From assembly GCA_048939015.1 (NCBI GenBank), contig JBHLPW010000002.1, positions 32,001 through 96,000 of the forward strand: a stretch of 64,000 nucleotides of DNA. The letters are read 5' to 3'. Position 1 is the first letter of the stretch. Every line of letters starts with the position of its first letter. This document shows, piece after piece, positions 3,611 through 21,991 of this stretch. The DNA is from Promethearchaeota archaeon (GTDB lineage: Archaea; Asgardarchaeota; Lokiarchaeia; Sigyniarchaeales; SOKP01). Under the pieces are notes generated by a model that saw nothing but the letters and a program-made list of their open reading frames with translations, was not told the DNA's origin and made no database searches. Both the position numbers and the translations under genes were made by a program.

Positions 3611-3796
3611 GTGGAGATGATTAAAATACCAGAGTTAGTTTGTGATATTTGTGGTTCAAGAAAGGAAGTTCCTACATGTTGTGATACATCAATGATAGTT
3701 AAGGATGAATATTTATTATGTTGTTGCTCTGATGAGTGTGGATATCAACCAATTCCCGAATGTTGTGGTCAATTAATGAAATATATAGAACATTAA
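3611..3796 (+). CDS. Small Cys-rich metal-binding protein with two desulforedoxin-like motifs
   Basis: 10 Cys in 61 aa, arranged as two C..CG...PxCC...M units. The true start may be the ATG at 3617. Confidence 0.65.
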   Translation: MEMIKIPELVCDICGSRKEVPTCCDTSMIVKDEYLLCCCSDECGYQPIPECCGQLMKYIEH

Positions 3797-3839
3797 AAAT
3801 ATAATTTAAAATTATAACAATTTGAAAAAAAATTTGATT

Positions 3840-5900
3840 TTAAGCTGTAGGAGAAACCTTTTTTTGTAAACCTCTTAAAATTTCTTCATATAATTTCTCT
3901 ATAAAACCCTCAAAATCATTCTCAGTATACTTCACATTTAACATCTGCCATAATAAAACAGGTATGTCATCCTCATTATCATATACTGGAATAATTTTTA
4001 ACATTCCCTTTTTTCTCATCTGGAATGCAGCTTGCCATTCATCTTTAACAGCATTAGATTTTACTGAATTTTTCGAGCAGAAAAGTACGAATATATCCGT
4101 ATTTTTTAGAGTATCTTCCATGAATTCTACGATGTTTTGTTTACTGTCAGCTTGCCAATACGAAACCTTTTTTATTTCTGGATATACTTCTAATTCTTTC
4201 ACTATATCTGATATTCGAAAATGCTCAGCATCCAAAGTAGAATAACTGAGAAATACTCTCTGGTTTTTAATGTCCTCAAGTGGTGATACTGGTGCTATTT
4301 CTTTTGCTTTTTGATTAAAGGCGATTGATTTTGATGCTGAAAAATATTCCGCGTCAATTTCCCGATTTTTAATCATTTCAAGAATTATTTGTTCGATTTG
4401 ACTTTCATCTTTAACATCACTCTTTTCAACAATATCCATGAGTTCAAGGCGGGCAAATTTAGTTCCATAGTTCAAGATAGTCTTTTTGATCTTTTTCTTG
4501 ATATTAAACTGGAAGTCCTTACAATAATCAATTTTTTCTTCAATTTTCTCTAGTAATTCAGAAAGTTCATATTCTCTTGCTAATTCTTTTATTTCAACTA
4601 GTTTTAAAATTGCGTCATAAAATTTACTATTTTCAATTAGATTTTCAATTTTAGATAATTTCTTTTGTATCTTTTTATCCATTTTAGCTTGTTCTTTATC
4701 TCTCTTAATTTCTTCTTCCAGTGTTTTACACTGTTCTATTTTTTCTTCTGCTTCTTTCAAAATTTCTGATAATTCATATTCTTGTGCTATTTGTTTAACT
4801 TTTTCTAATTCTCGAAATGCATTTCTTAGCTTATTATCTTCAATTAAATCTTCAATTTCAGATAACTGAGTTTGAAGTTCGTCTTTAACTCTCTGTTCTT
4901 CTAATTCTTCTCTTTTTTCTATTTTAAGTGTATTAACTTCCTTTAATTTTACCTGCGCCTTTTTCATTAATTCTATCAATCCAAAATTTCTTGCAGATGC
5001 TATTATATTATTTAGATTTGCAATAGCTTCATCATATCTATTTCCTCTAATTAATTCATCAATTTCTGACATTTTTTGCTGAAGACCAGTTTTAATTTTT
5101 CGTAGTCCCTCTTCTCTTTCCTCTTTGGAAATTTCTTTAAAGATAATAACAAAATCCCTTACTCGAGCATTTATCTCATGATTAGTGATCATATCGTCAA
5201 CAATGGTTTCAAGAGTTTCACGTTTTATTCCTGTTTTTGATATAATTTCGAAAAAAGGCAGTTCCTTTGATTGAAATTGCATGGTTTTGATAAAATCAAT
5301 AGTTTTTCCTTCAACTAATTGTTTATCCTCCCAATCAGTACCAACTACTACTTCCTGTTTAATTTCGATAGGTTCAACTTCTAATACCTTCCGTTTCATA
5401 GGTTTAGCCTTTACTTCTTTTACTTTCGTCGATTTAACACGTCGAAATATTAATTCTCCTTCCTTACTTACAACAGCAACAACATTTGTTCCAATTAAAC
5501 CAATCCCAAAAATCAAACATAAATAGAATCCAGCTGTAAAGGTTATAGGATTTACAATTACTTGATTTAATGAGATTATAGAAGGATAGATCATTAAGCT
5601 AATTAAAATTAAAAGAAAACCAATTCCACCGAATAGGAGTGCCTTTTTTTTTCTTTCTGGGGTCAATAGTATAATTGAGATAATGGCAAGTGCAACACCT
5701 ACCCACCCCCCAAAAATTAAAGCAATATAACCCTCATATTCTGTCGTATAACCTTCCCATACAGGAGTTTCGGGTGGTGGTGGATATGGAGGGTGATGTT
5801 CTAAATAATATGGAAGAAATGCTGAAACCAATACAATTATAATTAAGATTCCATAAATTAATCTTATAAAATTGAATTTCTGTATTCTAATTTCTGTCAT
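3840..5900 (-). CDS. 4-TM membrane protein with PCI/winged-helix-like domains, three helical repeats and a C-terminal TIR domain
   Basis: Four N-terminal hydrophobic segments; two wHTH/PCI-like segments (IVDDMITNHEINARV, IILEMIKNREIDAEY); TIR motifs VFLSYSTLD, FVLFCSKNSVKSNAVKDEWQAA and KIIPVY at about 3870-4259. Confidence 0.85.
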   Translation of the reverse strand: MTEIRIQKFNFIRLIYGILIIIVLVSAFLPYYLEHHPPYPPPPETPVWEGYTTEYEGYIALIFGGWVGVALAIISIILLTPERKKKALLFGGIGFLLILISLMIYPSIISLNQVIVNPITFTAGFYLCLIFGIGLIGTNVVAVVSKEGELIFRRVKSTKVKEVKAKPMKRKVLEVEPIEIKQEVVVGTDWEDKQLVEGKTIDFIKTMQFQSKELPFFEIISKTGIKRETLETIVDDMITNHEINARVRDFVIIFKEISKEEREEGLRKIKTGLQQKMSEIDELIRGNRYDEAIANLNNIIASARNFGLIELMKKAQVKLKEVNTLKIEKREELEEQRVKDELQTQLSEIEDLIEDNKLRNAFRELEKVKQIAQEYELSEILKEAEEKIEQCKTLEEEIKRDKEQAKMDKKIQKKLSKIENLIENSKFYDAILKLVEIKELAREYELSELLEKIEEKIDYCKDFQFNIKKKIKKTILNYGTKFARLELMDIVEKSDVKDESQIEQIILEMIKNREIDAEYFSASKSIAFNQKAKEIAPVSPLEDIKNQRVFLSYSTLDAEHFRISDIVKELEVYPEIKKVSYWQADSKQNIVEFMEDTLKNTDIFVLFCSKNSVKSNAVKDEWQAAFQMRKKGMLKIIPVYDNEDDIPVLLWQMLNVKYTENDFEGFIEKLYEEILRGLQKKVSPTA

Positions 5901-6137: not shown

Positions 6138-9100
6138 TTACTTTATTTTTTTCTTAAGTTGCCATGAAATTGATATTAAACTGAAAATCATTATTAAATA
6201 AAGCATATTAATATTATAAGTTGGTATAGCGGGAGATTCTGATTTCTTAATAGAAACCTCAGCATATCCTTCATGACCCAATGTATCAGTAGCATAAAAT
6301 CGTAGAGTGTATTCTCCAGGAGGTAATGCATTCCAATATTCTTGGATAATATCTCCAGTAAGGGTACAAGTTTCATTTATTTCTCCACCATCTAATGTAT
6401 ACCATATCTCATCTAAATTACCTTCATTTATAGTTAATTCAAAACTTGGAGCTCTATCTGTAAATGCTTGATTGTCTTCTGGAGAATTAATCGTGATCTC
6501 TGGTGAAAGTACATCTTTCCTCACAGTTACTTCTTCCCAATCAGAATTCCCTACCGAATCATTCGCATAAAATCTTATAGTAACAGTCCCATTGCCAAAA
6601 TTATCCCATTCCGTTTGGTCAATGTTTCCCATAGGTTCAGTAATAAGTAAGATTGTTACTCCTCCGTCCAAAGTATACCACATAATGTTCAAGTTTGGTT
6701 CTACAATAATTAAAGAAAATGAAGGAGTAGTGCTTCCGAAGAGATAATTTGAGATCGGTGTGGTGATTGTAATCTCTGGTGGAAGCACATCTTTTCTTAC
6801 TAACACATCTTCCCATCCAACATTACCAGCTGTATCATTCGCATAAAATCTAATAGTAACCGTTCCGTTTCCAAATTTACCCCATTCTATTTGGTCAATA
6901 TTACCCGTAGGTTCAGTAATAAGTACAATTGTTAACCCACCATCCAGGGTATACCACATAGTATCTAAATTAGGTTCAATAACTGTTATGTTAAAGTATG
7001 GTTCAGAACTTCCGAAAAGGTCATATAGAAGTGGTGAATTGATTGTAATGTTAGGATTGATAATATCAGCTATACAAGAAATTGTAAAATACCGAATTAA
7101 TGAAGATCTCATATATCCAACTGTATCATTTCCAAACACTTGAATGGTATGTAATCCATCTGAAGGCAATGGAATTGTAGTATTTCCTAAGATAGTCTTT
7201 ATTGTTTGAGAATCTAGTGAATATCCTTGCCAATCAAGAGCAATTTCACTCTCATAACTAAGTAATAGCCCTTCATTTAAATTATCTCCAATTTTATAAT
7301 TTGGATCCCAGGAATACCCTATCGCATCTACATATCTATTATGGCTATATGGCATTGACCAGCTTAACATATAGGTGGGTGCTATATTATTAATAAAGCT
7401 CAATGGTCCAATTTTAGTCCCATTAATATATAAATTCCATTGATATTGAGACAAACCCATATAACCTCCATTTGTAGCTTCAAAATCCATTCTAATATGA
7501 TACCACTTATTATTTATAACAGGAAGACCAGTATCATGCCAACCGGTATTATCTAGATATAAGAATTTATCTCCTACTCCGATTGCTACACAACAAATGT
7601 CTACAGTACCATTATGAAGTCTGATTTGAAATGAATGAGAAGAAGTGTAAGTAGTAATTTCATTTGCAGCCCAACATTCAAAAGTTCCATTACTCTGTGG
7701 TCCTGTAGTGAATTGCTGGAAAAAAATCGCCCCTCCTTCATAGCAATTGTATACCTTCTTATGACCATTAAATTCATCTATGACCTTCCAATTATCTTCA
7801 GAATCCAAAAAATTGAGAGGATCATTATTATTATGAGTATCTTCAAATCCATAGGTAGCTGGATAATAGCCACTCATCGGATCAGTATAGGTTTTGTTTT
7901 CAGGAGTGATTATATCTATAGGGAAATATTGAACGGTGAAATACCTAATCTGTGAATAATATTCTAATCCTAGTGAATCATTTCCAAATACTTGAACTGA
8001 ATGTACTCCATTCTCTGGTATCGGAATTGTTGTGTTTCCATAAATAGTTTTAGAGATGTGATCATCCAAAGAATACCCTTGCCAATCAAGAACGATTCTA
8101 TTTTTATAACTTAGCAATAAACCTTCATCCATATTAGCTCCAATTTGATAATTAGAATCCCATGAATACCCAATAGCATCAAAATACATATAATAATTCA
8201 TTTCTGTACTCGCAGTTGATATCCAAAATAGTGTTGCTTGAGGTTCATTATTTTCAAATTTAAAGGGTCCATATTTAGAGCCATTAATATGTATAAAACA
8301 GGAGTATTGATTCAATCCTTTATAATTCCCTGTTGAACATTCAAAATCAACACTTAAATGATACCAATTATTTGAAGAGGCAGGACACAATGAGTAATCC
8401 GTTCCATTAGTATATCGAAATTCATTATTCCTAATCTCAACAGCGAAAAGCGAATCAGTTACTACATCCAAATTCGCCAATCGAAAGGCTCCCGCCTGGG
8501 AAGCATCTGATATCCTCCACCAAAATTCTACTGTTCCATAAACTTGTACTGAGGAAAAGTTATTCCAAAGTTTTACAAGTCCAGCCCCAGCATTATTATT
8601 ATCATAGAGTTCTAAAACCTTTTGATGTCCATCAATTCCAGAAATGACTTGAACAGATGTATCTGAAGCTTCTAAAATTGTCCATCCTTCTGGATAAGTG
8701 CCATCCTCATCATTTTCAAATCCATGAGTTGCTAGGTAATATCCATCCATTGGTTGAGTATATGTTTGATTAACTGGAGTGACTAATTTAATCGAGGAAA
8801 CCTCAAAATGTTGTAGTCGTGATTGATATAACTCTCCTAATGAATCATTTCCAAATACCCGAATAAGATGTTCCCCATCTACTGGCATTTTTATAGTTGA
8901 ATTTCCTAGTATAGTTTTTATAGGCTGTAAATCAAGTGAAAATCCTTGCCAATCAAAGACAGTAGAGTTTGTAAAACTAAGTAATAACCCTTCGTTTAAA
9001 TTATCTCCAACATTATAGCCGGGATCCCATGAATAACCTATAGCGTCGACGTAATATGTAAGATTATTACTCGCACTAGAATAAATCTGAAAATTATGTA

Positions 9101-12100
9101 CATCAACTAGATCACCATCCCTAAAACCATAATCATCAGCTATCAAGGTATTATCGATATAGATATCGAATGTATCAGTCGAACAATTAAATTCAACACT
9201 AAAATGATACCATTTATCATTAATACAGGGAATAAGATCAGACCAAGATGTAGAATCATAACATTGAAACATATTTCCATCTGTTCTAATGACTACTGCT
9301 AGCTCACTGATAGATCCTCTTATTCTAATATATATATTCTCAGCTGAATCATTTGTACATATCCAAAATTCAACTACTCCATTTGATTTAGCGGAGGCAA
9401 AACTATCTAAAATATTAGCCGAAGGTGAAGAATTAGTGTCAATAAATTCCACAACTTTTTTATGATTTATGTATTCTTCAATTACTTGTACTGAAATGCC
9501 CTTCGCTACATCTGATACTAATCTTGAAGGTCTTGATCCAATTGAATCTTCTTCAAACCCAAAAGTTGCTGGATAATATCCACTCATAGGTTCATTGTAT
9601 ACTTTATCTTCAGGTGTTTTAATCTCTATTCCATAATCAACTTTAAAATATCTTAATTCAGATTCGTATAATATCCCTCGTGAATCCTCACCAAACAATT
9701 GAATTTGATGCACTCCTTCATCCAAATATGGAATGGTAGTATTTCCAAATATTGTTTTATTTATTTGTCCCTCTAATGAATAACCTAACCAAGTTAATTC
9801 GGTATTCTGAATAGTACTAATCAGTAATCCATCATTTGCATTATCGCCAATATTATAGTTTGAATCCCATGAATACCCAATAGCATCGGCATAGCATATA
9901 TCTCCATTAAAATGATAGAAATTTTGACCACTTGGAGTATTATTATATCGGAAACTAAAGGGTCCAAATTGTTCGTTATCTATAGCTACTTGCCAATACC
10001 ATTGTGATAAGCCCATATATCCTCCACTAGAGGTTTCAAAATCAATTCTCATATGATACCATGTGTTATCCAAAGTAGATTTTCCTAAATTATACATACC
10101 ACCAGTATGATTATTATAAACAAATTTTTCGTTATCTATTCCAATAGAAAAAGCTTGTCCTTGCCCAATTTGATATATCTGTGATGATATGGCATAAGAT
10201 GCATCTTCAATTGCCCACCAAAATTCAATAGTACCATGTTCTTCTGGTGTTTCAAATATATGATTTATCGAAATATCTCCAGGCCCAGGATCCTCCATTT
10301 TTAAAACCTTATTATGACCTTGAAATTCATCGATTATTTCACAAACACCATAAGTGTCGACCCACCCAAAAGGATCACTTGCATCTTGGTCATTCTCGAA
10401 TCCAAAAGTGGCAGGATAATATCCGTATGTTGGTGCAAAATAAGTTTTGTTTTCAGGTGTGCTAATATTAAAGAATGAACCTGTATCTACTGAAAAGTAC
10501 CTTAATTCAGAATTATAGATACTTCCTAACGTATCATTACCAATTACCTGAATATGGTGACTTCCATCTTTAGGAAAGGGGATTGAAGTATTTCCTAATA
10601 TTGGTATTATTGATTGACTGTCCAGAGAATATCCTTGCCAATCTAGATTAGTGCTATTCTCATAACTTAGTAGTAATCCTTCATTGAAATTATCACCAAC
10701 ATTATATCCTATATCCCATGAGTAACTTATTGCATCAGCCCAGAATTCAATAGCTTGAGTATTACCGGTATATAACTCTACTTCATAAGCATCTCCAGTG
10801 AAAGAATAATTAGCTATAGGTGATTCAAAATAGAGAGATCCGTCAGCTTGATAAATCCTAAATTTATATTTATTTGCATCTAAATCTTTATAGGTTCCAT
10901 CTCCAGAAAAATCTATACTCACTCGAAACCATTCATTTATAGAATTTAAACCTGTATTAATTTCGGTAGTACCATTTTTATAATACCACACATTATCATA
11001 GCTATATACATCAACTATATACTGATCGAGCGAATTTTTTATAAAAAAATGAGTGTGGTAATTATGACTATTATAGTATATCCAATATTCAACTGTTCCA
11101 CTAGTAATATTTTCATAGAATATTTGTGCAGGATATAGGTGAATACCACCTCCGGGATCGTTCAGATACAGAACATTATTGTGCCCATCTTTAGAATCAA
11201 CTACGTATACTCTTCCTTGATAAGAACCATATCCTTCTTCTGACCATGCATTTGGAAAATCCCCACTTTTATCATTCTCAAATCCATAGGTGGCAGGATA
11301 ATAGCCACTCATTGGACAAGTATAGATCTTATCTTCAGGTGTGATTAAATTTAAATGATGAACTGAAAAGCAACGAATATTAGATTGAAAATTAGTCCCT
11401 AATGAATTATTTCCATATACCCGAATTGAATGTGGTCCATCCTCTGGCAATGGAATCGTAGCATTCCCTAAAATTGTTCTATTAATCTGTCCATCTAAAG
11501 AATAGCCCATCCAATCAAGATTGGTATTATTTTCATAACTTAGTAATAATCCTTCATTGAAATTATCACCAACATTATATCCTATATCCCATGAGTAACT
11601 TATTGCATCAGCCCAGAATTCAATAGCTTGAGTATTACCGGTATATAACTCTACTTCATAAGCATCTCCAGTGAAAGAATAATTAGCTATAGGTGATTCA
11701 AAATAGAGAGATCCGTCAGCTTGATAAATCCTAAATTTATATTTATTTGCATCTAAATCTTTATAGGTTCCATCTCCAGAAAAATCTATACTCACTCGAA
11801 ACCATTCATTTATAGAATTTAAACCTGTATTAATTTCGGTAGTACCATTTTTATAATACCACACATTATCATAGCTATATACATCAACTATATACTGATC
11901 GAGCGAATTTTTTATAAAAAAATGAGTGTGGTAATTATGACTATTATAGTATATCCAATATTCAACTGTTCCACTAGTAATATTTTCATAGAATATTTGT
12001 GCAGGATATAGGTGAATACCACCTCCGGGATCGTTCAGATACAGAACATTATTGTGCCCATCTTTAGAATCAACTACGTATACTCTTCCTTGATAAGAAC

Positions 12101-13250
12101 CATATCCTTCTTCTGACCATGCATTTGGAAAATCCCCACTTTTATCATTCTCAAACCCATAAGTTCCGAAATAATACCCATTCATTGGTTTTGAATAAGT
12201 TTTCGCTTCTGGTGTTATTATATCTATTGGAAAATCTACTGTGAAATATCTAATTTCAGATTGGTGATTTATTCCTAATTGATCCATCCCAAAGATATGA
12301 ATTGTATGAAGCCCATCTTCTGGCATTCTAATTGTCGTGTTACCAAGAATAGGTCTTTTATTTTGACTATCTAAAGAATAACTTTTTCTATCAAGTGTGC
12401 TATTAGAATCAAAACTAATTAATAAGCCTTCATATAGATTATCTCCCACTTGATAGTTAGGATCCCAAGAATATCCTACGGCATCATAAAAAGTCGAATA
12501 CCCAGATTCAGTAGTCCTTGTATAAATTTGAAAACTACCAAGGGATTGGTGGTCGTGAGTACCTATCATTGGATAAGGACCATATTTTTCCCCATCGATA
12601 TATACTTGCCATTTCTCCTCCGGTAACCCACTATAGTTTCCCTCAGTACATTCAAAATCAATATGAATGTGATACCACGTATTATCTGAAGCAATTTTTC
12701 CCACATCATACCATAGAAAGCCAGGGCTATAATATCTTCTAAATTTATCCTCCCGTATTGAGATACAAACCGCATAGCTACCTCCAGGAGGCTCATATAT
12801 TACTGCATCGGCTGGGTCAGTTGCATCTGTAACTCTCCACCAAAATTCAATAGATCCATATGATTGAGTTTTTCCAAATGTTTGTATAGCTCGAGTTTCA
12901 TAACTAGTATCTGTATCTTGTAATTCTACTACTTTCTTATGACCATCTAGATCACCTATTATATCTGCTGCGCCGCCTTTTCTATCTATTTTCCAACCAT
13001 TCGGGTCAGTATTTTCTCTATCATTTTCAAATCCAAAAGTTGCAGGATAATATCCTTCCATAGCATCTGTATATGTTTTATTTTGCGGAGTTACAATTGT
13101 TATACTATTGCTACTTAATTTTAAATCTACTTTTTCATCAGAAACTTTATTTAATCTATTGATTCCAAAATTATTCATAAAAGCATAACTACATAACCCA
13201 ACTAAAAGGATTAAACTTAAGGAGATTAATCTTATTCTTATCTTTTTCAA
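6138..13250 (-). CDS. Giant surface protein A: signal peptide, 7 LamG/ConA-like cassettes in an Ig-like scaffold, 3 Ig-like stalk repeats, Loki-CTERM-like anchor
   Basis: TTG start with GGTGA SD; seven GYYPATxGFE...DAxGYSWDxxYxxGDN units with GTxEFW and WYHxxxDF motifs; tail PAIPTYN-hydrophobic helix-KKKIK; many N-x-S/T sequons. Confidence 0.85.
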   Translation of the reverse strand: MKKIRIRLISLSLILLVGLCSYAFMNNFGINRLNKVSDEKVDLKLSSNSITIVTPQNKTYTDAMEGYYPATFGFENDRENTDPNGWKIDRKGGAADIIGDLDGHKKVVELQDTDTSYETRAIQTFGKTQSYGSIEFWWRVTDATDPADAVIYEPPGGSYAVCISIREDKFRRYYSPGFLWYDVGKIASDNTWYHIHIDFECTEGNYSGLPEEKWQVYIDGEKYGPYPMIGTHDHQSLGSFQIYTRTTESGYSTFYDAVGYSWDPNYQVGDNLYEGLLISFDSNSTLDRKSYSLDSQNKRPILGNTTIRMPEDGLHTIHIFGMDQLGINHQSEIRYFTVDFPIDIITPEAKTYSKPMNGYYFGTYGFENDKSGDFPNAWSEEGYGSYQGRVYVVDSKDGHNNVLYLNDPGGGIHLYPAQIFYENITSGTVEYWIYYNSHNYHTHFFIKNSLDQYIVDVYSYDNVWYYKNGTTEINTGLNSINEWFRVSIDFSGDGTYKDLDANKYKFRIYQADGSLYFESPIANYSFTGDAYEVELYTGNTQAIEFWADAISYSWDIGYNVGDNFNEGLLLSYENNTNLDWMGYSLDGQINRTILGNATIPLPEDGPHSIRVYGNNSLGTNFQSNIRCFSVHHLNLITPEDKIYTCPMSGYYPATYGFENDKSGDFPNAWSEEGYGSYQGRVYVVDSKDGHNNVLYLNDPGGGIHLYPAQIFYENITSGTVEYWIYYNSHNYHTHFFIKNSLDQYIVDVYSYDNVWYYKNGTTEINTGLNSINEWFRVSIDFSGDGTYKDLDANKYKFRIYQADGSLYFESPIANYSFTGDAYEVELYTGNTQAIEFWADAISYSWDIGYNVGDNFNEGLLLSYENSTNLDWQGYSLDSQSIIPILGNTSIPFPKDGSHHIQVIGNDTLGSIYNSELRYFSVDTGSFFNISTPENKTYFAPTYGYYPATFGFENDQDASDPFGWVDTYGVCEIIDEFQGHNKVLKMEDPGPGDISINHIFETPEEHGTIEFWWAIEDASYAISSQIYQIGQGQAFSIGIDNEKFVYNNHTGGMYNLGKSTLDNTWYHMRIDFETSSGGYMGLSQWYWQVAIDNEQFGPFSFRYNNTPSGQNFYHFNGDICYADAIGYSWDSNYNIGDNANDGLLISTIQNTELTWLGYSLEGQINKTIFGNTTIPYLDEGVHQIQLFGEDSRGILYESELRYFKVDYGIEIKTPEDKVYNEPMSGYYPATFGFEEDSIGSRPSRLVSDVAKGISVQVIEEYINHKKVVEFIDTNSSPSANILDSFASAKSNGVVEFWICTNDSAENIYIRIRGSISELAVVIRTDGNMFQCYDSTSWSDLIPCINDKWYHFSVEFNCSTDTFDIYIDNTLIADDYGFRDGDLVDVHNFQIYSSASNNLTYYVDAIGYSWDPGYNVGDNLNEGLLLSFTNSTVFDWQGFSLDLQPIKTILGNSTIKMPVDGEHLIRVFGNDSLGELYQSRLQHFEVSSIKLVTPVNQTYTQPMDGYYLATHGFENDEDGTYPEGWTILEASDTSVQVISGIDGHQKVLELYDNNNAGAGLVKLWNNFSSVQVYGTVEFWWRISDASQAGAFRLANLDVVTDSLFAVEIRNNEFRYTNGTDYSLCPASSNNWYHLSVDFECSTGNYKGLNQYSCFIHINGSKYGPFKFENNEPQATLFWISTASTEMNYYMYFDAIGYSWDSNYQIGANMDEGLLLSYKNRIVLDWQGYSLDDHISKTIYGNTTIPIPENGVHSVQVFGNDSLGLEYYSQIRYFTVQYFPIDIITPENKTYTDPMSGYYPATYGFEDTHNNNDPLNFLDSEDNWKVIDEFNGHKKVYNCYEGGAIFFQQFTTGPQSNGTFECWAANEITTYTSSHSFQIRLHNGTVDICCVAIGVGDKFLYLDNTGWHDTGLPVINNKWYHIRMDFEATNGGYMGLSQYQWNLYINGTKIGPLSFINNIAPTYMLSWSMPYSHNRYVDAIGYSWDPNYKIGDNLNEGLLLSYESEIALDWQGYSLDSQTIKTILGNTTIPLPSDGLHTIQVFGNDTVGYMRSSLIRYFTISCIADIINPNITINSPLLYDLFGSSEPYFNITVIEPNLDTMWYTLDGGLTIVLITEPTGNIDQIEWGKFGNGTVTIRFYANDTAGNVGWEDVLVRKDVLPPEITITTPISNYLFGSTTPSFSLIIVEPNLNIMWYTLDGGVTILLITEPMGNIDQTEWDNFGNGTVTIRFYANDSVGNSDWEEVTVRKDVLSPEITINSPEDNQAFTDRAPSFELTINEGNLDEIWYTLDGGEINETCTLTGDIIQEYWNALPPGEYTLRFYATDTLGHEGYAEVSIKKSESPAIPTYNINMLYLIMIFSLISISWQLKKKIK
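10674..12155. repeat. Exact 609-bp direct repeat (10674-11282 = 11547-12155, offset 873 bp)
   Basis: Base-by-base comparison found no mismatch. The first mismatches are at 10673/11546 and 11283/12156. Confidence 0.95.
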
Positions 13251-13257
13251 ACAAATT

Positions 13258-13330
13258 TCACCAAAATTTATTTTGACTATTTAATATAATCTGAGATACA
13301 AAAATGTCAAGTTAGTATTTAAAAATTTGT
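13258..13330 (-). promoter_or_regulatory. Putative TATA box (TTTTTAAATAC, 13315-13325) and GGTGA SD for surface protein A
   Basis: Homologous to the upstream region of the paralog at 20241-20320. Confidence 0.5.
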
Positions 13331-13403
13331 CAAAAATTTAATAAATCAAATCTAAGATAACAATTTGACCAGACGTAATCAAAGAAAAAGAAAAAAGAGA
13401 ATT

Positions 13404-14410
13404 TTATTTTATTTTTTTCTTAAGTTGCCAAATCAAAGATATTGTTCCGATCATCATTATCAGAAAAAGTATAATATTATGATAACTAGATATAGCGGGA
13501 GATTCTGTCTTCTTAATAATAACCTCAGCATATCCTTCATGACCCAATGTATCAGTAGCATAAAATCTTAGAGTGTATTCTCCAGGAGGTAATGCATTCC
13601 AATATGATTGGTCAATTTGTCCAGAAAATGTACAAGTTTCATTGATTAATCCACCATCTAATGTGTACCATATAGTATCTAAATTACCTTCAATTATATC
13701 TAAATCAAAGTTTGGAGCTCTATCTGTGAATATTTGATTGTCTCCTGGGAGATTAATCGTGATCTCTGGTGAAAGTACATCTTTCCTCACAGTTACTTCC
13801 TCCCAATTAGAATTCCCTACTGTATCATTTGCATAAAACCTAATAGTAACCGTTCCGTTTCCAAACTTATCCCATTCCGTTTGGTCAATGTTTCCTATAA
13901 GTCCTATCATAGGTATAATTGTTACTCCTCCATCTAAAGTATACCACATAGTGTTCAAATTTGGTTCTAGAATAGTTGCATCAAATGAAGGAGCAGTACT
14001 TTCGAAGAGATAATTTGAGATCGGTGTAGTGATTGTAATCTCTGGTGGAAGCACATCTTTTCTCAATAATACTTCTTCCCATCCAACATTACCAGCCGTA
14101 TCATTTGCATAAAATCTAATTGTTACCGTTCCGTTTCCAAATTTACCCCATTCTATTTGGTCAATGTTTCCCGTGGGTTCAGTAATAAGAATAATTGTTA
14201 ACCCACCATCCAGGGTATACCACATAGTATCCAAATTAGGTTCAATAACTGTTATATTAAAGTATGGTTCAGTACTTCCGAAAAGGTCATATAGAAGTGG
14301 TGAATTGATGGTAATGTTAGGATCAACAATATCACCTGCGGTTGAAATTGTAAAATACCGAATTAATGAAGACCTCATATATCCCCAGGTATCATTTCCA
14401 AATACTTGAA
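13404..14410. repeat. ~1-kb 3' segment highly similar to 6138-7144 (offset 7266)
   Basis: Long identical runs, e.g. aacctcagcatatccttcatgacccaatgtatcagtagcataaaat at 6255 and 13521. Confidence 0.9.
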
Positions 14411-17400
14411 TAGTGTGTACTCCATCAGATGGCATAGGAATTGTTGTATTTCCCAGAATAGTTATAATTGGTTGAGAGTCGAGTGAATATCCTTGCCAAT
14501 CAAGAGCATAATTGCTTTGATAACTAAGAAGTAAGCTCTCATTTATATTATCTCCAACATTGTAATTTGGATCCCATGAAAATCCAACAGCGTCAATATA
14601 AAAACTATAATCTACATGATATATACTACTTGCTATACTAAAGTATTTCATCATTGTATTTGGATTCCGATAATCATAACCAGAAGAACCACCGTAGGTT
14701 GTTCCATTCACAGTAATCCAAAATTTATCTATAGTTGAATTGAATGTAATTGAGATATGATACCATATATTACTTAGAATTGGAGAGATGTTATAATAAG
14801 CGTCCGTTCTATAAGTAAGATATCCACTGTCAACACGTAGATATATTCCATCAGATGAATCTGTTTCAAAGAGGTTAATACTAGTTCGCATGCTTGAATT
14901 TTCAATTAAATAATAAAATTCGATTGTCCCATTATCTCTATTTGTCAAGTTAATTTTCATTTGAGTTTGTTCTGAATATACTGTGTCTGTTAGGTTGACT
15001 ACTTTTCTGTGATTATAATAACTATCTATTACCTCACACATACCTCCAAAAGCAACATCTTGATACCATCCATTTGGGAATGCTTTTTCTTCATCATTTT
15101 CAAATCCATACGTAGCATGGTAATATCCGCTCATAGGGTTAGTATATGTAATATTATAAGGCGTTATTATATTTATTGGGAAATATTGAACAGTAAAATG
15201 CCTAAGAGAGGAATAATAATTATTTCCAATAGAATCATTTCCAAATACTTGAATTTTATGTACTCCATTTGAAGGCATAACAAATGTAGTATTACCGAAA
15301 ATTGTTCTGTTAATTTGTCCATCTAAGGAATACCATTGCGAATCAATATTAGTACTATTTTCATAACCTAGTAACAACCCTTCATTAAGGTTATCTCCAA
15401 TATTATAATTAGGATCCCAGGAATAACCAACTGCATCAAAATAAGAATTGTATCCAAGTCCATAACTATAAGTATGCAAGTGAAATTCATCTAATTGTTC
15501 ATCAGCACCAAAAAGATATGGTCCATAACCAACTCCATTTATATATACGTAGAATTCATTTTCATTAAGGCCATGATATCCTCCTGTAGTATGTTCAAAA
15601 TCAATCCTAATATGATACCATGTATTTATCAATGGAGTTGCGGCTCCAATAATCGGAGTGTCACTACCATTATGATGTACATGCCATTCAGCAGGACTTC
15701 CACCAAACATCCTTACTCCAAACAAGATATTACCATTTCCCATCCCCGTGATCTGGCTTCTATCACCATCACTTCCTAAATCATCTTGTTGTACCCAAAC
15801 CTCAATTGTACCGTTATCTTTATTATTTATAAGATTATATATTCTTGTTGGATTTCCACTTCCACCTTGATTATCAAATAATCGAAGGACTTTTTTATGT
15901 CCATCTAGTTCTGAAATTACTTCCGCTTCGGGATTTTCAATTTGAATTACCCAATCTTTTGGATCAGCATTGTTTTCATCATTCTCAAATCCATAGGTAG
16001 CTGGAAAGTAACCACTCATCGGATTAGTATAGGTTTTATTTTCAGGAGTGAATATTATAAAAGGTGAGACTGTGAAATATCTAATCTCAGATTTATATAA
16101 AATCTCTCTGAAATCCATACCAAAGAGTTGAATTTTATTACGTTGTTTGCTATAATTACTAAAAGGGATTACTTTATTTCCGAATATTGTTCTATTAGAC
16201 TGTCCATTTAATGAATAACTAGTCCATTTTAGATCAGTGGTTTTAGTAAAATCCAATAATATACCTTCATCCTCGTTATCACCAATATTATAATTAGGAT
16301 CCCATGAATACCCGATTGCATCTATATAAGAGTAAAAATTCGAATCAGTACCAGTTGTGCCAAAATAAATTGTGTCCATGGCGCTTGGTGCTCCATAAAA
16401 GGCATATCCTGCGCCATTTGTTTTATTGCCATCTATCCATAAATGCCATTCTCCTGCTGTACAGTTCCATTCAATTCTAAGATGATACCATTGATCCATA
16501 TTGTAAGTCATTATATCTTGAGGCGCAGTAGTGTAATAACGAATCCAACCATTATCATCGAAGTATAAGTAAACTGCTTTCGTTTCCACACCATCATAAA
16601 TGAAAACTTTTGTTCTTGTTGTATTATCCCCACACCGAACATATAATTCAATAGTTCCTGTATTCTGATCAGCGAAATTGTGGTAAACTTCCACCATATC
16701 AGTTGAAGAAGTATCATGTAATTCCAAAACTTCATTATGACCATCAATATCAGATAAAATATTGACTGTTCCTCCCTTTTCACCTATTTTCCACCCAACT
16801 GGAACTGAACTATCTGAAAATTGCACAAGATCGTCTCTTTCAAATCCAAAGGTTGCTGGATAATATCCATGCATTACACTCTCATATGTTTTGTTTTCTG
16901 GAGTGATAATATTAAAGAAATTACCAGTATTTACAGAAAAGTATCGATTATCTGAATTATAGATATTCCCTAAAGTATCGTTACTAAATACTTGAATATG
17001 ATGAGATCCATCAGAAGGCATCGGAATTGTTGTATTTCCCAGAATAGTTATAATTGGTTGAGAGTCGAATGAATATCCTTGCCAATCAAGATTGGTAGTA
17101 TTTTCATAACTTAGTAACAATCCTTCATTTAAATTGTCTCCGATGTTATAATTGGGATCCCAAGAAAAACTCAACGCATCTAAATAGATATGATAATTGT
17201 AATTAGATATGCTTGTCCAATATAGAATTGTATCTAGATGTGTGCAATTAGTTAAAAAGGGTAAAGATGCTGATAATGTATTGTCTACCGTATATCTTAA
17301 TGTATATTGAGATAGACCGGTATAATTTCCACCTGTACATTCAAAATCTATTCTTATATGATGCCAATTATTGACCAACGGAGTCCCTAATGCCGGTATT

Positions 17401-20234
17401 ATTGTCCATGACGGATTTAACCCTTTCCAAGCCGAATCCATAAGTTGAAAACCTGCAAAAACACTTAAGGAGCTATCTTGAAATTCAAATTGAAAAGGTC
17501 TGTTAATATCAGTACTTCTAACCCAATATTCCATTGTACCATAGGTTTGGGGTATTGATAAGTTATTCCTCATAGACACATGACCATAAGTGATAGGATC
17601 ATCTAAATCTAAGATTTTTTTATGTCCATCCAACTCAGAAATAACTTTTAAATTACAACCCGACGCAGTAAGATTAATAAAATCTCTTGGAAGCGTCCCA
17701 TCTTTTTCACTCTCAAAACCATAAGTAGCAGGATAATATCCACTCATTGGAGTCGTATACGCTTTATCTTCAGGAGTAACAATACTTATATGATGAGTTG
17801 AAAAATATCGTGTAGTAGATTGGTATTGATTGTTCAAAGAGTCGTTTCCATATACCCGAATGAAATGGTTTCCATCTTCTGGAAGAGATAATGTAGTATT
17901 TCCGAAAATCCTTTTGAATGGTTGATTATCTAAAGAATACCATGTCTTATTTAAGCTAGTACTATTTTTATAATAAAGAAGTAATCCTTCTTTCATATTT
18001 TCTCCCACGTTATAATTAGGATCCCATGAATATCCTACAGCATCAAAGTAAGCATAATAATTTGGATCAGCCGCTGAGTTACCGGTTGTTATTCTGATTT
18101 TATTTGCGTAAGTAGATGGATTCTGCATTATAAAGTCGGAATTGCTTTGGTTTCCATTCAGATATACCCTAAATGTATTGGCTGCTAATCCCATATACCC
18201 TCCAGATCCACATTCAAAATCGATTCTAAGGTGATACCATTGATTTCCATTAATTGCACCAAATTCTGTCAAATCGATAGAGTCTGTATTGTTTACCGCA
18301 ACTAGATATCCTGCTGTATTAAATCTCACTGTTAAAATTGGTACAGCATCATAATAAGGTTGAACCCAAAGTGGATAGCCTGATATTTTCACGAGAACCC
18401 AAAGTTCAACAGTGCCATTAGATTGATTTGCATATGAATTATAGGTATCGGGATTTCCCCCTCCATTATTATCAAATAGTTCATACACTCTCTCATGTCC
18501 GTTGTATGAATCGACTAGATAAGAGTGGGTGGTTGATACCACATCATGCGTCCAATTTTTAGCATCAGCTCCAGGAAGATCACTCTCAAATCCATATGTA
18601 GCTGGATAATATCCACTCATAGGTTCGCCATAGACTTTAGCTTCTGGAGTTATTATTTCAATCGGAAAATCAACAGTAAAATATGTAATATTTGATTGAT
18701 ACTCTTGTTCATACTGATCAACTCCAAAAATTTGCATGCTATGAAGTCCATTTTCTGGCATTGTAATTATAGTATCTCCTTTTATAGCCCTCTTCAGTTG
18801 ATTATCTAAAGAGTAGCTCATTGTATGAAGAAGAACTTCTGTATCAAAACTAATAACTAAACCTTCTTCTGAATTATCCCCAATTTCATAATTTGGATCC
18901 CATGAATAGCCAATCGCATCAGCATAAGCGATATCTCCAGTATTAGAATAAAAAGCAATAGTATCAGGAACCTTATTATTCGCGAAAGTATATGGTCCAT
19001 AGGACTCACCATCAATATACAATTGCCATCTCCATTCTGACAAACCCATATATTTGCCTTCAGTAGTCTCAAAATCTATTCTTATATGATACCAAGTGTT
19101 ATCTAAAGCCGTCTTTCCAACATCATACCATGTACTATTGTAATATTCGAATTTATCACTTGTAATTCTAATACAAAAACAATTTCCAACTGCAAGATTA
19201 TTTATCTGATTTTGAATTGAAAGAGAAGCATCTCTTTCTGCCAGCCAATATTCAATAGTACCAAAATCTGGTGGTGATTCCAAAGTATCGCCTATTCCAA
19301 TTTGTCCCGCTCCAGGATCAACCATTTCTAAGACTTTTTTATGTCCTTGAAATTCTTGAATAATTTGTGAACTATCACCTCCATCATACCAATCCTCTGG
19401 ATCTCCACCATTTTTATCAGTTTCGAATCCATATGTGCCAGGATAATAACCATCCATAGGTTTTGTATATGTCTTATTAACTGGAGAAAGTAAATTTATT
19501 AATTTGTCACTTTCATAATAAAATGCGATGTCGTCAACGCGGAAATCACCGTTTCCTCCACCTGATACAAAAGATGTTATCCAGATATCTTGCGCATTTG
19601 CTGTAAAAATTCCGTGATTATAAAAAGGAAGACTATAATCTGCTCCATATCTCACACCATCAAGATCAAACATCCAACCTATACTTAGGTTAAAATAAAT
19701 CACAACATCATACCATTGGTTATAAGTATAAGTAGTAAGAGTATCTCCATATGTATCGTTCCTTATTTCACCATTCCACCAGACCATAGCTAAGATAGTT
19801 TCACCATTTGCAGAACGCAAGTTTGTACCAAATCCAGATGCATCATGATACACCTTTAAGTGGTATTCACCCACTATATAAGTTTCACCGAAATATGAAA
19901 AATTATCCCTTATGGAAACTCGTCCGTCGGCTGTTTTATCGAATAATAAATGCTTTTGCTGTTCATCTCCCAAATCTGCTATAATTAAATCTCCACCTGC
20001 TTCATTCATATTAGCAAATGTTGGAGCAGTAGGATCTTGACCTATGGTTTCATCCTCGAAATCGTATGTATGTGAAAGTATCTTATGTGATGCTGCACTG
20101 AGAGATGGATTATTTTCTTCCTCAAGATTAAAATTAGTTTCAGATTTATTTGGCAAGTTTCTAGGCATAAAACCCATAAAATTGATCAATAGCAAAATTA
20201 CTGTTATAATTAATATTTTTTTATTTTTTTTCAA
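13404..20234 (-). CDS. Giant surface protein B, paralog of A: N-terminal lectin-like domain, 6 cassette/Ig units, 3 Ig-like stalk repeats, Loki-CTERM-like anchor
   Basis: Same repeat motifs as A; C-terminal ~330 aa highly similar to A; TTG start with GGTGA SD. Confidence 0.85.
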   Translation of the reverse strand: MKKNKKILIITVILLLINFMGFMPRNLPNKSETNFNLEEENNPSLSAASHKILSHTYDFEDETIGQDPTAPTFANMNEAGGDLIIADLGDEQQKHLLFDKTADGRVSIRDNFSYFGETYIVGEYHLKVYHDASGFGTNLRSANGETILAMVWWNGEIRNDTYGDTLTTYTYNQWYDVVIYFNLSIGWMFDLDGVRYGADYSLPFYNHGIFTANAQDIWITSFVSGGGNGDFRVDDIAFYYESDKLINLLSPVNKTYTKPMDGYYPGTYGFETDKNGGDPEDWYDGGDSSQIIQEFQGHKKVLEMVDPGAGQIGIGDTLESPPDFGTIEYWLAERDASLSIQNQINNLAVGNCFCIRITSDKFEYYNSTWYDVGKTALDNTWYHIRIDFETTEGKYMGLSEWRWQLYIDGESYGPYTFANNKVPDTIAFYSNTGDIAYADAIGYSWDPNYEIGDNSEEGLVISFDTEVLLHTMSYSLDNQLKRAIKGDTIITMPENGLHSMQIFGVDQYEQEYQSNITYFTVDFPIEIITPEAKVYGEPMSGYYPATYGFESDLPGADAKNWTHDVVSTTHSYLVDSYNGHERVYELFDNNGGGNPDTYNSYANQSNGTVELWVLVKISGYPLWVQPYYDAVPILTVRFNTAGYLVAVNNTDSIDLTEFGAINGNQWYHLRIDFECGSGGYMGLAANTFRVYLNGNQSNSDFIMQNPSTYANKIRITTGNSAADPNYYAYFDAVGYSWDPNYNVGENMKEGLLLYYKNSTSLNKTWYSLDNQPFKRIFGNTTLSLPEDGNHFIRVYGNDSLNNQYQSTTRYFSTHHISIVTPEDKAYTTPMSGYYPATYGFESEKDGTLPRDFINLTASGCNLKVISELDGHKKILDLDDPITYGHVSMRNNLSIPQTYGTMEYWVRSTDINRPFQFEFQDSSLSVFAGFQLMDSAWKGLNPSWTIIPALGTPLVNNWHHIRIDFECTGGNYTGLSQYTLRYTVDNTLSASLPFLTNCTHLDTILYWTSISNYNYHIYLDALSFSWDPNYNIGDNLNEGLLLSYENTTNLDWQGYSFDSQPIITILGNTTIPMPSDGSHHIQVFSNDTLGNIYNSDNRYFSVNTGNFFNIITPENKTYESVMHGYYPATFGFERDDLVQFSDSSVPVGWKIGEKGGTVNILSDIDGHNEVLELHDTSSTDMVEVYHNFADQNTGTIELYVRCGDNTTRTKVFIYDGVETKAVYLYFDDNGWIRYYTTAPQDIMTYNMDQWYHLRIEWNCTAGEWHLWIDGNKTNGAGYAFYGAPSAMDTIYFGTTGTDSNFYSYIDAIGYSWDPNYNIGDNEDEGILLDFTKTTDLKWTSYSLNGQSNRTIFGNKVIPFSNYSKQRNKIQLFGMDFREILYKSEIRYFTVSPFIIFTPENKTYTNPMSGYFPATYGFENDENNADPKDWVIQIENPEAEVISELDGHKKVLRLFDNQGGSGNPTRIYNLINNKDNGTIEVWVQQDDLGSDGDRSQITGMGNGNILFGVRMFGGSPAEWHVHHNGSDTPIIGAATPLINTWYHIRIDFEHTTGGYHGLNENEFYVYINGVGYGPYLFGADEQLDEFHLHTYSYGLGYNSYFDAVGYSWDPNYNIGDNLNEGLLLGYENSTNIDSQWYSLDGQINRTIFGNTTFVMPSNGVHKIQVFGNDSIGNNYYSSLRHFTVQYFPINIITPYNITYTNPMSGYYHATYGFENDEEKAFPNGWYQDVAFGGMCEVIDSYYNHRKVVNLTDTVYSEQTQMKINLTNRDNGTIEFYYLIENSSMRTSINLFETDSSDGIYLRVDSGYLTYRTDAYYNISPILSNIWYHISITFNSTIDKFWITVNGTTYGGSSGYDYRNPNTMMKYFSIASSIYHVDYSFYIDAVGFSWDPNYNVGDNINESLLLSYQSNYALDWQGYSLDSQPIITILGNTTIPMPSDGVHTIQVFGNDTWGYMRSSLIRYFTISTAGDIVDPNITINSPLLYDLFGSTEPYFNITVIEPNLDTMWYTLDGGLTIILITEPTGNIDQIEWGKFGNGTVTIRFYANDTAGNVGWEEVLLRKDVLPPEITITTPISNYLFESTAPSFDATILEPNLNTMWYTLDGGVTIIPMIGLIGNIDQTEWDKFGNGTVTIRFYANDTVGNSNWEEVTVRKDVLSPEITINLPGDNQIFTDRAPNFDLDIIEGNLDTIWYTLDGGLINETCTFSGQIDQSYWNALPPGEYTLRFYATDTLGHEGYAEVIIKKTESPAISSYHNIILFLIMMIGTISLIWQLKKKIK

Positions 20235-20410: not shown

Positions 20411-21991
20411 TTACCAAATTAGATTAGCAATTATATCTTTAGTTGTTTCTGCTTGTTTTTTATTCAGTATTTTTCGAATACGCAGATCATTGATAGCATC
20501 ATCTAGGCGTGTGTCTAGGTTTTTCATTTCCATTAAATTATTTTTATCTCCTTGAGTCTCTACAAGTTCGATCATTGAATTTTCTTTATTCATTAAATCT
20601 CTTAATTTCTGTCTAAAACTAGCTTTCACTTTAGTTCTTACTACTTTCCCTCCATCAATTAAAATGGGTAATACGGGAGCTCTTTCAGTCGTTCGATTTG
20701 TATTGGGGTCCGTGAAGAAAAAGATATAGATTGGGATACCTACTATGACATTTTGTGACTTTAATTCAAGAGTATAGTTATTGAAGAAAGCCTGTACATT
20801 TGTCATTTCACTATCTTTAATCGATTCAATGTTATCCAAACAAGCTTGTTTTTCTGTTTTAATTTGTGCTAATACATCCTCAGCAGATGTTAAATCTTTA
20901 CTTAAGTCACTATGTTTTGCCTCAATTTGTTTTTCGACTTCAGATTTCTTACGTTCTAACTCACGTAGTTTTTGCTGTTTAGTTTTCTCTAGATCTGAGA
21001 TTTCACGTTGTACATTTCTCCGTAATTGTGCTATCTCATTTTTATACCTTGCTATAGAGTCTCCTAATTCACGATATTTAACATCGATATCTTTTAATCC
21101 CTCTTCTACTAAAAAGAGATCTCGTTGGTTAATAGCGTTTTTCAAACCATCCACGCTTTGTTTGAGTGTACTTAGATGATTATTAAGTTCTCCGGTTTTG
21201 TCATTGATTTTGTATTTTCCAAGCTTTACGAGTTCTTCTGGAGATTTTTCTATTTCTCGTTCTTTTTCTGCTTGTATTTCTTTATTCAATATTGCAAGTT
21301 GTTTCTCTTCTTCTCCTGTATCTACTTTTGTATCTCTAATTTTATCAGCTTCTTTGCTTCCTTTTTCGATCCATCTCTCGCATAATTTTATTATAATATC
21401 GCTATAAGAATCTAACGTTTTAACATCTGTTTGTGAAACGAATTCATTAATTTCTGGTACTATTTTAATCTGATTTACACTTTTTGAAATAGATCCTCCT
21501 TCCAACATAAAATAGGGAGTAGAGTGAGCCCCTAGATTATATTGATTAAGAAAAAAGTTTTGAAAATATCCTACTTCATTTGTATTAAACAAAGCTTCTT
21601 GAATAACTATACCACGCTTGAAGTTTTTGGCTCTCTTTAGATAGGAATTATTATAAGATTGTAAAGAATTCAAAAAAGACACAGGATCTGCGCCCTTCAC
21701 AACATTTTCAGGTCGAGGGGGCATCTGAGCGAATTGTCCAACACTTAATTTTTCTTGTTTATTTAAAAGATAACTACAGACACAAGCTCTTGTATCGCTT
21801 AAGGGAATTAAGCGAACAGGCCAAAATGCTGTAGTTATTTTTGAGATTTTCCCTAGCTTTTTTAATGATTTGCCATAAATACCTACACATTCAATCAAAC
21901 CCATGGCAAGTTCGTTAAGTAGGCTTGCTTGACTTCGAGCGGGAGTTATTTCACCCATATTAATTAAAAAAGGTGTTACTTTATCAACCAT
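20411..21991 (-). CDS. Hypothetical protein with a long central coiled coil
   Basis: E/K/Q/L heptad-rich region at about aa 200-400, flanked by globular segments; no TM or signal peptide; no recognised family. Confidence 0.75.
   Translation of the reverse strand: MVDKVTPFLINMGEITPARSQASLLNELAMGLIECVGIYGKSLKKLGKISKITTAFWPVRLIPLSDTRACVCSYLLNKQEKLSVGQFAQMPPRPENVVKGADPVSFLNSLQSYNNSYLKRAKNFKRGIVIQEALFNTNEVGYFQNFFLNQYNLGAHSTPYFMLEGGSISKSVNQIKIVPEINEFVSQTDVKTLDSYSDIIIKLCERWIEKGSKEADKIRDTKVDTGEEEKQLAILNKEIQAEKEREIEKSPEELVKLGKYKINDKTGELNNHLSTLKQSVDGLKNAINQRDLFLVEEGLKDIDVKYRELGDSIARYKNEIAQLRRNVQREISDLEKTKQQKLRELERKKSEVEKQIEAKHSDLSKDLTSAEDVLAQIKTEKQACLDNIESIKDSEMTNVQAFFNNYTLELKSQNVIVGIPIYIFFFTDPNTNRTTERAPVLPILIDGGKVVRTKVKASFRQKLRDLMNKENSMIELVETQGDKNNLMEMKNLDTRLDDAINDLRIRKILNKKQAETTKDIIANLIW

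Follow-up and report, generated by a model that had tools for sequence, protein, structure and literature searches.

Apparent exchange of lectin-like cassettes within a colinear immunoglobulin-like scaffold of two giant surface proteins from a Lokiarchaeia archaeon

How can two neighbouring genes keep a common scaffold in the same order while the domains carried on that scaffold stand in no corresponding order? This question is raised by positions 6138-20234 of the stretch of DNA analysed here (64,000 nucleotides, hereafter the window), where two tandem minus-strand open reading frames (ORFs), A and B, encode giant proteins built of repeated modules. The source is a metagenome-assembled genome (MAG; G000) of 4.86 Mb in 125 contigs, 94.9% complete with 6.5% contamination. 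The organism is a Lokiarchaeia-type Asgard archaeon, in keeping with the names under which homologs are recorded ('Promethearchaeota archaeon', 'Loki-CTERM sorting domain-containing protein', 'LamG-like jellyroll fold domain-containing protein'). The answer that we favour, with a probability of roughly 80%, is that a colinear scaffold carries cassettes that have been swapped between slots, genes and species by recombination at their conserved edges. The genes and their terminal parts are as follows.

6138..13250, minus strand: gene A, 2370 aa; surface protein with seven modules (slots S1 to S7)
13404..20234, minus strand: gene B, 2276 aa; tandem paralog of A with six modules, one slot fewer
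6141..6998, minus strand: A stalk; three Big_13/OmpL47-like immunoglobulin (Ig) repeats plus anchor, about 83% aa identity to the B stalk
13407..14264, minus strand: B stalk; partner of the A stalk in a later homogenisation of the 3' ends
19485..20087, minus strand: B0; divergent N-terminal jellyroll of B, without the GYYPAT/GYSWD flanks

Each module comprises about 290 residues, namely a cassette (jellyroll), an Ig-like domain and a slot-specific linker. More specifically, the conserved segment I.IITPExKTY..M.GYYPATxGFE is followed by a variable core of 167-182 residues, by Y.DAxGYSWDPNYxxGDNxxEGLLL, by an Ig-like segment of about 70 residues (GYSLDGQ ... RYF.V) and finally by the short linker. 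The flank motifs GYYPATxGFE and Y.DAxGYSWDPNYxxGDNxxEGLLL hardly vary between modules in any member of the family, a widespread one with more than 260 multi-module homologs in a database search; their DNA identity is about 70%, and the exact runs within it measure 10-26 nt. Parsing by these motifs yields 7 + 6 = 13 modules in A and B, with B0 as a fourteenth, divergent jellyroll. Both proteins are membrane-anchored surface proteins: each starts with a hydrophobic, signal-like N-terminus and ends in three Ig-like stalk repeats (Pfam Big_13), a transmembrane (TM) segment and a KKKIK tail. Ahead of the TM helix, the C-terminal sorting motif reads PTY/SSY in A and B instead of PGF, and no NCBIfam sorting domain matched either protein at E <= 0.01. 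The orthologs P0003 and G012 (introduced below) carry PGF, and some homologs are labelled Loki-CTERM proteins by NCBI.

An earlier note on this DNA, made from its letters, had proposed that the slot-specific linkers are colinear in A and B, and the linkers that it quoted are indeed present and in the same order in both proteins. Scaffold identities between A and B span 43-84% overall and are highest in positional pairs (A1-B1 64%, A3-B3 75%, A6-B5 66%, A7-B6 84%); a scaffold tree groups the same pairs with support of 98/98 (A1+B1), 96/89 (A3+B3), 100/100 (A7+B6) and 82/82 (A6+B5). The accompanying proposal that the cassettes depart from the scaffold order also stands, since cassette identities (23-51%) have no link to position. 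The A2 and A3 cassettes are 100% identical, and the best non-identical pair is A4 with B1 (51%), a resemblance that had been pointed out before. The cassette tree is star-like, recovers none of the four scaffold pairs, and joins B2 and B4 with same-genome cassettes of other genes (contigs C16 and C10). A mosaic origin had further been suggested for A1. Its second half is related to B1 as described (62% identity in the third quarter versus 21-38% in the first half); the alleged likeness of its start to B4 proved unspecific, with 47% identity to both B4 and B5, 44% to B6 and 42% to A6, and the max-chi-square value of p = 0.0012 for the A1/B1/B4 triplet is post hoc.

Approximately unbiased (AU) tests on the cassette data rejected the positional pairs A4+B4 (p = 1e-4) and A2/3+B2 (p = 0.012) and, marginally, A7+B6 (p = 0.045). 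When whole topologies were compared, the cassette data rejected the scaffold topology (p-AU 0.002-0.003 with A2 or A3 removed), and the reverse test of scaffold data against the cassette topology gave p < 1e-6.

Related genes from other genomes were then included: P0003 (X; 1966 aa, from a JGI metagenome), G045 (G; 2606 aa, with B0 plus seven slots), and the further orthologs G012 (H; 5'-truncated) and G066 (K; 5' part only). The G045 gene is syntenic, lying between an ortholog of ORF 20411-21991 (88% aa identity) and TIR/RelA-SLOG genes (67-84%), and it is a single gene at the position where G000 has A and B. Searching metagenome contigs with P0003 as query returned no related locus. Slot trees were built from 31 Ig-plus-linker segments and 30 cassettes of the five genes A, B, X, G and H. 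The scaffold segments form seven slot clades, six of them starred, and the tree needs only 6 slot-label changes, the minimum; with shuffled labels the mean was 21.5, and 0 of 200 shuffles came as low as 6. On the cassette tree the labels change 19 times, compared to 20.7 on average after shuffling; as regards slot, the relationships among cassettes are random. Tree congruence, which the earlier note had named as the test of its proposal, is therefore lacking by AU tests and by label changes alike. The strongly supported cassette clades, with the slots of their members, are listed below.

B3 + G6: slots S3 and S6
B1 + X3, with A4: slots S1, S3 and S4
B2 + X5 + G5: slots S2, S5/6 and S5; G066 carries this type in S2
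X6 + H3: slots S7 and S5
X4 + G3: slots S4 and S3
A2 = A3: slots S2 and S3
A6 + H4: slots S6 and S6, the same slot
B4 + H2: slots S4 and S4, the same slot

The cassette cores of A and B that bear on these clades have the following positions and relatives.

12486..13025, minus strand: A1 cassette core; C-terminal half related to B1, N-terminal half without a specific relative
9888..10394, minus strand: A4 cassette core; closest in-genome relative of B1 (51%)
8181..8714, minus strand: A6 cassette core; 77% identical to the G012 slot-6 cassette (same slot)
18921..19421, minus strand: B1 cassette core ('b1' type), slot 1; 72-73% identical to the P0003 slot-3 cassette and 51% to A4
18045..18584, minus strand: B2 cassette core ('b2' type), slot 2; type also found in G066, G045 and P0003
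17181..17711, minus strand: B3 cassette core ('b3' type), slot 3; 86% aa and 92% nt identity to the G045 slot-6 cassette
16323..16838, minus strand: B4 cassette core; 65% identical to the G012 slot-4 cassette (same slot), nearest in-genome relative on contig C10

When the b3 cassette was searched against database proteins no longer than 2000 aa, no additional close copy turned up. The scaffold itself has changed in number. B and P0003 have six slots, not seven, and their fifth module combines a slot-5-type linker before the cassette with a slot-6-type scaffold after it. The fifth-module scaffolds of the two genes (window 15144-16061 in B) cluster together with support of 100/96, and the six-slot state suggests that both share the loss of one module by unequal crossover. 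B0 is kept in the G045 ortholog and in P0003, and is missing from A and from the G066 gene.

Where do the exchanged tracts begin and end? The clearest case is an exact repeat within gene A.

10674..11282, minus strand: exact 609-bp tract, copy in A3; spans the cassette core and part of each conserved flank
11547..12155, minus strand: A2 copy of the exact 609-bp tract; probable gene-conversion recipient

The two copies have 0 differences, start in the GFE codons and end in EGLLL, and the DNA outside them is 65-70% identical. A3 is probably the donor and A2 the recipient, because the G012 ortholog has the same cassette type in slot 3. Between species, the DNA of B3 and G6 matches at 90-98% in the stretch running from PMSGYYPATYGFE to DALS.SWD, and at 55-70% to either side of it. 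A three-segment likelihood fit to five events (A2-A3, B3-G6, B1-X3, B2-X5 and A4-B1) put the beginning of each tract between -3 and +8 residues relative to the GYY motif, and its end between +3 and +24 residues counted from where DAxGYSWD starts. Clustering of breakpoints at the conserved flanks, the other test laid down in the earlier note, is thus seen at both edge motifs in five clear exchange events, as judged by our own change-point and max-chi-square tests, with P0003 breakpoints mapped at the protein level only. Breakpoints within cassettes also occur, in A1 and in the G066 b2 cassette, whose N-terminal part is B2/X5-like and whose C-terminal part is G5-like (max-chi-square p = 0.037). 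Apart from A2/A3, exact runs shared in the flanks reach at most 26 nt (median 10-11). Compared with the rest of the module, the flanks show no rise in codon identity at conserved residues or in identity at synonymous sites; their conservation thus looks structural in origin, with general recombination simply making use of them.

Two other genes of the same genome carry family jellyrolls in a different setting. On contig C16, an ORF from base 5510 (1139 aa) contains two adjacent jellyrolls, 96% identical and not separated by an Ig domain (C16c_1 and C16c_2; 95% identical in nt, synonymous divergence (dS) 0.16), and its C-terminal part is subtilase-like; the jellyroll pair is a second recent intragenic cassette copy. 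On contig C76, an ORF from base 78392 (2248 aa) has at least five consecutive family jellyrolls without Ig scaffold between them.

Synonymous divergence dates the exchanges relative to their surroundings. It is informative only for the stalk and for inter-species pairs, because between A and B modules it is saturated (0.8-2) for cassettes and scaffolds alike and cannot separate them. The values were:

Syntenic flanking genes, G000 versus G045: dS 0.76-1.16
Stalk, G000 versus G045: dS 0.94
b3 cassette, B3 versus G6: dS 0.15 (bootstrap 0.09-0.23; 44 of 51 fourfold sites identical)
Stalk and neighbouring gene, G000 versus G012: dS 0.87-1.16
a6 cassette, A6 versus H4: dS 0.43 (0.30-0.62), younger than the gene around it
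Stalks, A versus B: dS 0.27 (0.18-0.38)
Modules, A versus B: dS about 1 or more

After the species lineages had split, they exchanged at least one cassette, whose copies landed in different slots. The difference in age between cassettes and scaffold cannot come from selection alone. Between A and B, dS drops from about 1 to 0.2-0.4 inside the last Ig domain. Taken together, these differences between segments make the locus a patchwork of segments of different age.

We propose the following mechanism for such exchanges. The two conserved flank patches would serve as homology arms, recombination of the ordinary kind, homologous or homeologous (gene conversion), would resolve inside them, and the 510-540-bp jellyroll core would be replaced in frame, leaving the Ig/linker scaffold untouched. 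The donor could be another slot of the same gene (as for A3 into A2), the tandem paralog (as for the 3' ends of A and B), or DNA of another species of the genus (as the dS values of the b3 and a6 cassettes document). The stalk would then be inherited vertically and stay colinear, while the set of lectin-like heads would be reshuffled over evolutionary time. The process looks like sporadic gene conversion or homologous recombination on an evolutionary time scale, foreign alleles included, and not like a programmed switch, because no cassette archive or reverse transcriptase was found in the genome and no recombinase in the window, because the events range from dS 0 to 0.43, and because contigs of two studies agree on the arrangement over the parts that they cover.

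What, then, is being exchanged? The B3 module was modelled with AlphaFold2 from an alignment of 34 natural modules (mean predicted local distance difference test score, pLDDT, 87); this model replaced an earlier one from 12 sequences, in which the Ig part had a pLDDT of about 30. The predicted cassette is a curved two-sheet jellyroll with adjacent N- and C-terminal strands. It occupies residues 20-212, with the GYY and GYSWD motifs precisely at its two ends, so that these flank motifs form the first and the last beta-strand of the predicted jellyroll. Its best structural match is the carbohydrate-binding module (CBM) of sialidase BT_1020 (5mqs_A residues 415-614, PDB 5mqr/5mqs; Z 21.8, root-mean-square deviation 2.4 Å over 175 residues), followed at Z 13-15 by legume lectin, calnexin/calreticulin, CBM40 and GH16 glucanases; Foldseek gave E = 2e-10 for the fold match. 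At the sequence level, one cassette passes PF22585 (Sialidase-like_CBM; 30.4 bits, cut-off 27, on B residues 1166-1293). The remaining cassettes individually stay under this threshold, yet are homologous to the one that passes, and many homologs carry PF13385 (Laminin_G_3) or PF22585. For the Ig-like parts, PF19077 (Big_13) matches the C-terminal repeats (35.1 and 31.4 bits, cut-off 27) and NF047446 (OmpL47, NCBIfam) the post-cassette Ig parts (42-46 bits, cut-off 40), and hhalign relates the stalk repeat to the module Ig with 84% probability. In this alignment, stalk-repeat columns 28-85 cover the post-jellyroll Ig part only and the first strands fall before the jellyroll, where the I.IITP segment is modelled as a confident strand (pLDDT 91). 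Because the stalk-repeat profile aligns from column 28 and this strand is confident, the jellyroll (about 190 residues) may be looped out between Ig strand A (I.IITPExKTY) and strand B, a topology that these data support in part.

The cassettes thus share the fold of ConA-like lectin/CBM jellyrolls (PF22585, PF13385 and the BT_1020 CBM). They differ from solved ConA-like and CBM structures in having only about 10% identity to them and no catalytic domain attached, in being repeated six or seven times, and in their family-specific GYYPATxGFE and DAxGYSWD strands. By fold they would be of a sugar-binding type. Glycan or partner-surface binding is the likely function, on a cell without an ordered S-layer. 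The earlier note had spoken of a recombination-driven repertoire of surface binding specificities: recombination is borne out by trees, breakpoints and dS, whereas the binding specificities are suggested by the lectin/CBM fold and the surface topology.

Several points weigh against the account given here. The flank homology is short and imperfect, and either RadA-type recombination or template switching may be at work. Two cassette types (A6/H4 and B4/H2) share a slot, which means that cassettes often, but not always, change slots. With A and B as the only genes, AU tests leave A1+B1 (p = 0.12) and A3+B3 (p = 0.40) unrejected and A6+B5 appears as a weak clade, although with 13 modules single-pair tests have little power for these three pairs. 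Much of the case leans on three or four related genes from MAGs plus one metagenome protein. On the structural side, the putative nested topology was deduced from the profile alignment and the strand confidence, and the suggestion of binding comes from the fold, at about 10% sequence identity to solved structures.

Could vertical descent account for the locus, with cassettes diverging faster under diversifying selection and cross-slot likeness arising by convergence or noise? The star-like cassette tree, the low identity of most cassette pairs (23-40%), the saturated dS of most module comparisons and the three positional pairs left unrejected fit such a view. It fails on the cross-slot pairs, whose identity reaches 72-86% (aa) and 92% (nt, over about 530 bp) and falls off abruptly at either flank, on the exact 609-bp tract between scaffolds that are 65-70% identical, and on the b3 cassette, whose dS of 0.15 amid gene parts and neighbours at 0.76-1.16 is impossible to obtain by selection at the protein level. 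Nor are cassettes intrinsically faster, as nonsynonymous divergence is no higher in the cassette than in the scaffold in some pairs (A4-B1, B2-C16a_2). We regard vertical descent without exchange as the least credible of the alternatives. Programmed switching at high frequency, of the pilE/pilS, vls or mgpB type, or a diversity-generating retroelement (DGR), would instead vary the surface within a population. One event without a substitution in 609 bp, flanks that resemble built-in recombination arms and the near-identical C16c_1/C16c_2 pair in another gene would suit this idea. Such a system would be expected to leave machinery, and the searches speak against it. The genome has 24 cassette matches (on C21, C16, C10 and C76), and all 24 lie in stop-free open frames of 734-2380 aa; a silent or promoterless archive was accordingly rejected. 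RVT_1 had no match in the 94.9%-complete MAG, and the same search finds RVT_1 in control genomes; no template/variable repeat pair was found, and the differences between cassettes are spread over whole domains and are not adenine-specific, so that a DGR was rejected as well. The absence of a recombinase or reverse transcriptase from the window, which the earlier note had reported, was upheld by Pfam scans of ORFs of at least 120 aa outside A and B, which revealed no transposase, site-specific recombinase or reverse transcriptase. In addition, the remaining events are old (dS 0.15-0.43), synonymous sites in the flanks are not specially conserved, and the contigs of two studies show the same arrangement, with at least 99% identity to the locus over the covered parts in this contig-level view of the population. 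Programmed variation is, on balance, improbable.

An assembly or binning artefact is another alternative, since repetitive modules can produce chimeric joins, false orders and a false A2/A3 duplicate. All genomes involved are MAGs, that of G000 with the fragmentation and contamination given above. Contigs of the closest species break at or inside the giant gene (G020:C169, G005:C27, G066:C313, G009:C50; of these only G066 added data), which leaves short-read assemblies without the orthologs that would tell most, and the exact 609-bp repeat exceeds short-read length. However, A2/A3 aside, the flanks lack exact runs long enough to cause de Bruijn mis-joins at usual k. Public sediment-metagenome runs yielded Logan contigs that match 7519-10703, 14453-17052 and 17039-19953 without difference, thereby reproducing long multi-cassette stretches (a contig of 3185 nt from the A3 scaffold to A6, and one of 2915 nt over B1-B3 with 0 differences). 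The repeat itself forms a 609-nt unitig with a depth of 19.4, compared to 10-13 for its unique neighbours, and a unique 324-nt piece (11253-11576) has the repeat on both sides; doubled depth and double flanking together require two tandem copies. Cross-slot placement is seen independently in the G045, G066, G012 and JGI metagenome assemblies, and transferred cassettes are 86-92% identical, not 100%, and hence are not the same reads binned twice. We therefore consider an artefact very improbable, and recombination at the conserved edges of the cassettes is the reading carried forward.

Some details of the read data stand on their own. No RNA run was listed as containing the locus. In the run labelled X3, a contig passes the repeat boundary at 10703 and continues to 10940 (237 nt), and the A2 region (11291-12252) is uncovered; the strain in this run may lack the A2 copy, which is only a hint, as coverage holes prove nothing. 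Runs X3 and X6 show coverage holes and short-sided joints of 21-32 nt, to which we attach no reading. In run X1, the 609-nt unitig differs from the window at 11640 (G>A) and 11646 (T>C), indicating that a slightly different version of the repeat exists in that sample.

How does this locus compare to known systems? The closest archaeal precedent is VARTIG of Thermococcales, a multi-Ig exported protein whose C-terminal Ig domain is hypervariable, apparently via inter-species recombination, and which lies in a variable genomic island; its function is unknown, with roles in self/non-self recognition or conflict proposed, and its authors saw no counterparts outside Thermococcales (Makarova et al. 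2021, PMC8416519). A and B share with it that they are archaeal, large, multi-Ig and partly hypervariable, with apparent inter-species recombination and a variable island. They differ from it in that the variable part of VARTIG is the C-terminal Ig domain plus polymorphic downstream genes, in a layout like that of toxin systems, whereas A and B carry 13 lectin-like jellyrolls at internal slots of a colinear Ig scaffold and have no polymorphic downstream partners. By lineage (Promethearchaeota), variable unit and conserved downstream genes, the family is set apart from the arCOG07710-type proteins of VARTIG.

In Neisseria pilE/pilS and Opa, Mycoplasma genitalium MgPa/MgPar and Borrelia vlsE, conserved brackets likewise provide the homology for segmental gene conversion of a surface product. 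Those bacterial loci draw on stores of silent, incomplete copies and undergo high-frequency switching inside a single clone, whereas in A and B every copy lies in a long open gene, the unit is a whole domain, and events are rare (dS 0 to 0.43) and in some cases cross-species. Phage receptor-binding proteins and tail fibres and Rhs/contact-dependent inhibition (CDI) toxins have a constant shaft or core with tips exchanged at conserved junctions, often across species, and usually swap one terminal module. A and B differ in having up to seven internal display positions, in being cellular genes and in lacking an immunity or partner gene. DGRs also diversify a ligand-binding surface domain of lectin or Ig fold on a constant framework; A and B are unlike them in the missing reverse transcriptase and template/variable repeat and in their whole-domain differences without adenine specificity. 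Homologous recombination at conserved junctions is thus not new in kind as a mechanism. What is particular here is a whole lectin-fold domain, apparently nested in an Ig domain, that occupies up to seven internal positions and moves between positions, paralogs and species in Asgard archaea.

Our literature searches brought up no paper about this family or about the name Loki-CTERM, and the evolution and nature of Lokiarchaeia surface proteins are almost unstudied. Cultured Lokiarchaeia have no ordered S-layer, and numerous 'complex surface proteins' are thought to mediate their syntrophic cell-cell contacts (PMC9834061); by extension, such contacts bear on models of eukaryogenesis. The locus points to where binding specificity likely resides, and its natural chimeras could be used to study binding. 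With it, surface diversification driven by recombination, well known from bacterial pathogens and phages, extends to free-living Asgard archaea. A bolder idea, speculative and in our view unlikely, is that the Ig-plus-jellyroll module evolved as a plug-and-play display scaffold whose exchangeable code of lectin heads, traded across species, would set recognition of partners, kin and viruses. If this were true, a prokaryotic recombination-based recognition repertoire would exist in the closest relatives of eukaryotes, on a surface without S-layer.

The genomic surroundings of A and B are partly conserved. The downstream TIR and RelA-SLOG genes are kept at 67-84% identity in the sister species. 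Giant gene and TIR/RelA-SLOG genes are missing together at the syntenic locus in ten species (G014, G019, G042, G008, G041, G003, G006, G058, G055 and G016). Because the block is absent downstream of the ORF551 ortholog in these ten other species of the genus, it is a variable island present only in a subclade. Around the giant genes, window 706-5900 and 22098-33586 encode membrane proteins with cytoplasmic TIR domains whose outer parts are NosD/beta-helix or SBP_bac_5 ectodomains, and a RelA/SpoT-TPR-SLOG protein also sits among these neighbours. Further away, the only recombination-related domain in the window is Recombination endonuclease VII (PF02945) in a 154-aa ORF at 53457-53921, which is 33 kb from the locus and has no visible link to it. 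Finally, window 58486-60351 contains three tandem genes for Ras-family small GTPases of 176-178 aa each (Pfam Ras E ~1e-48).

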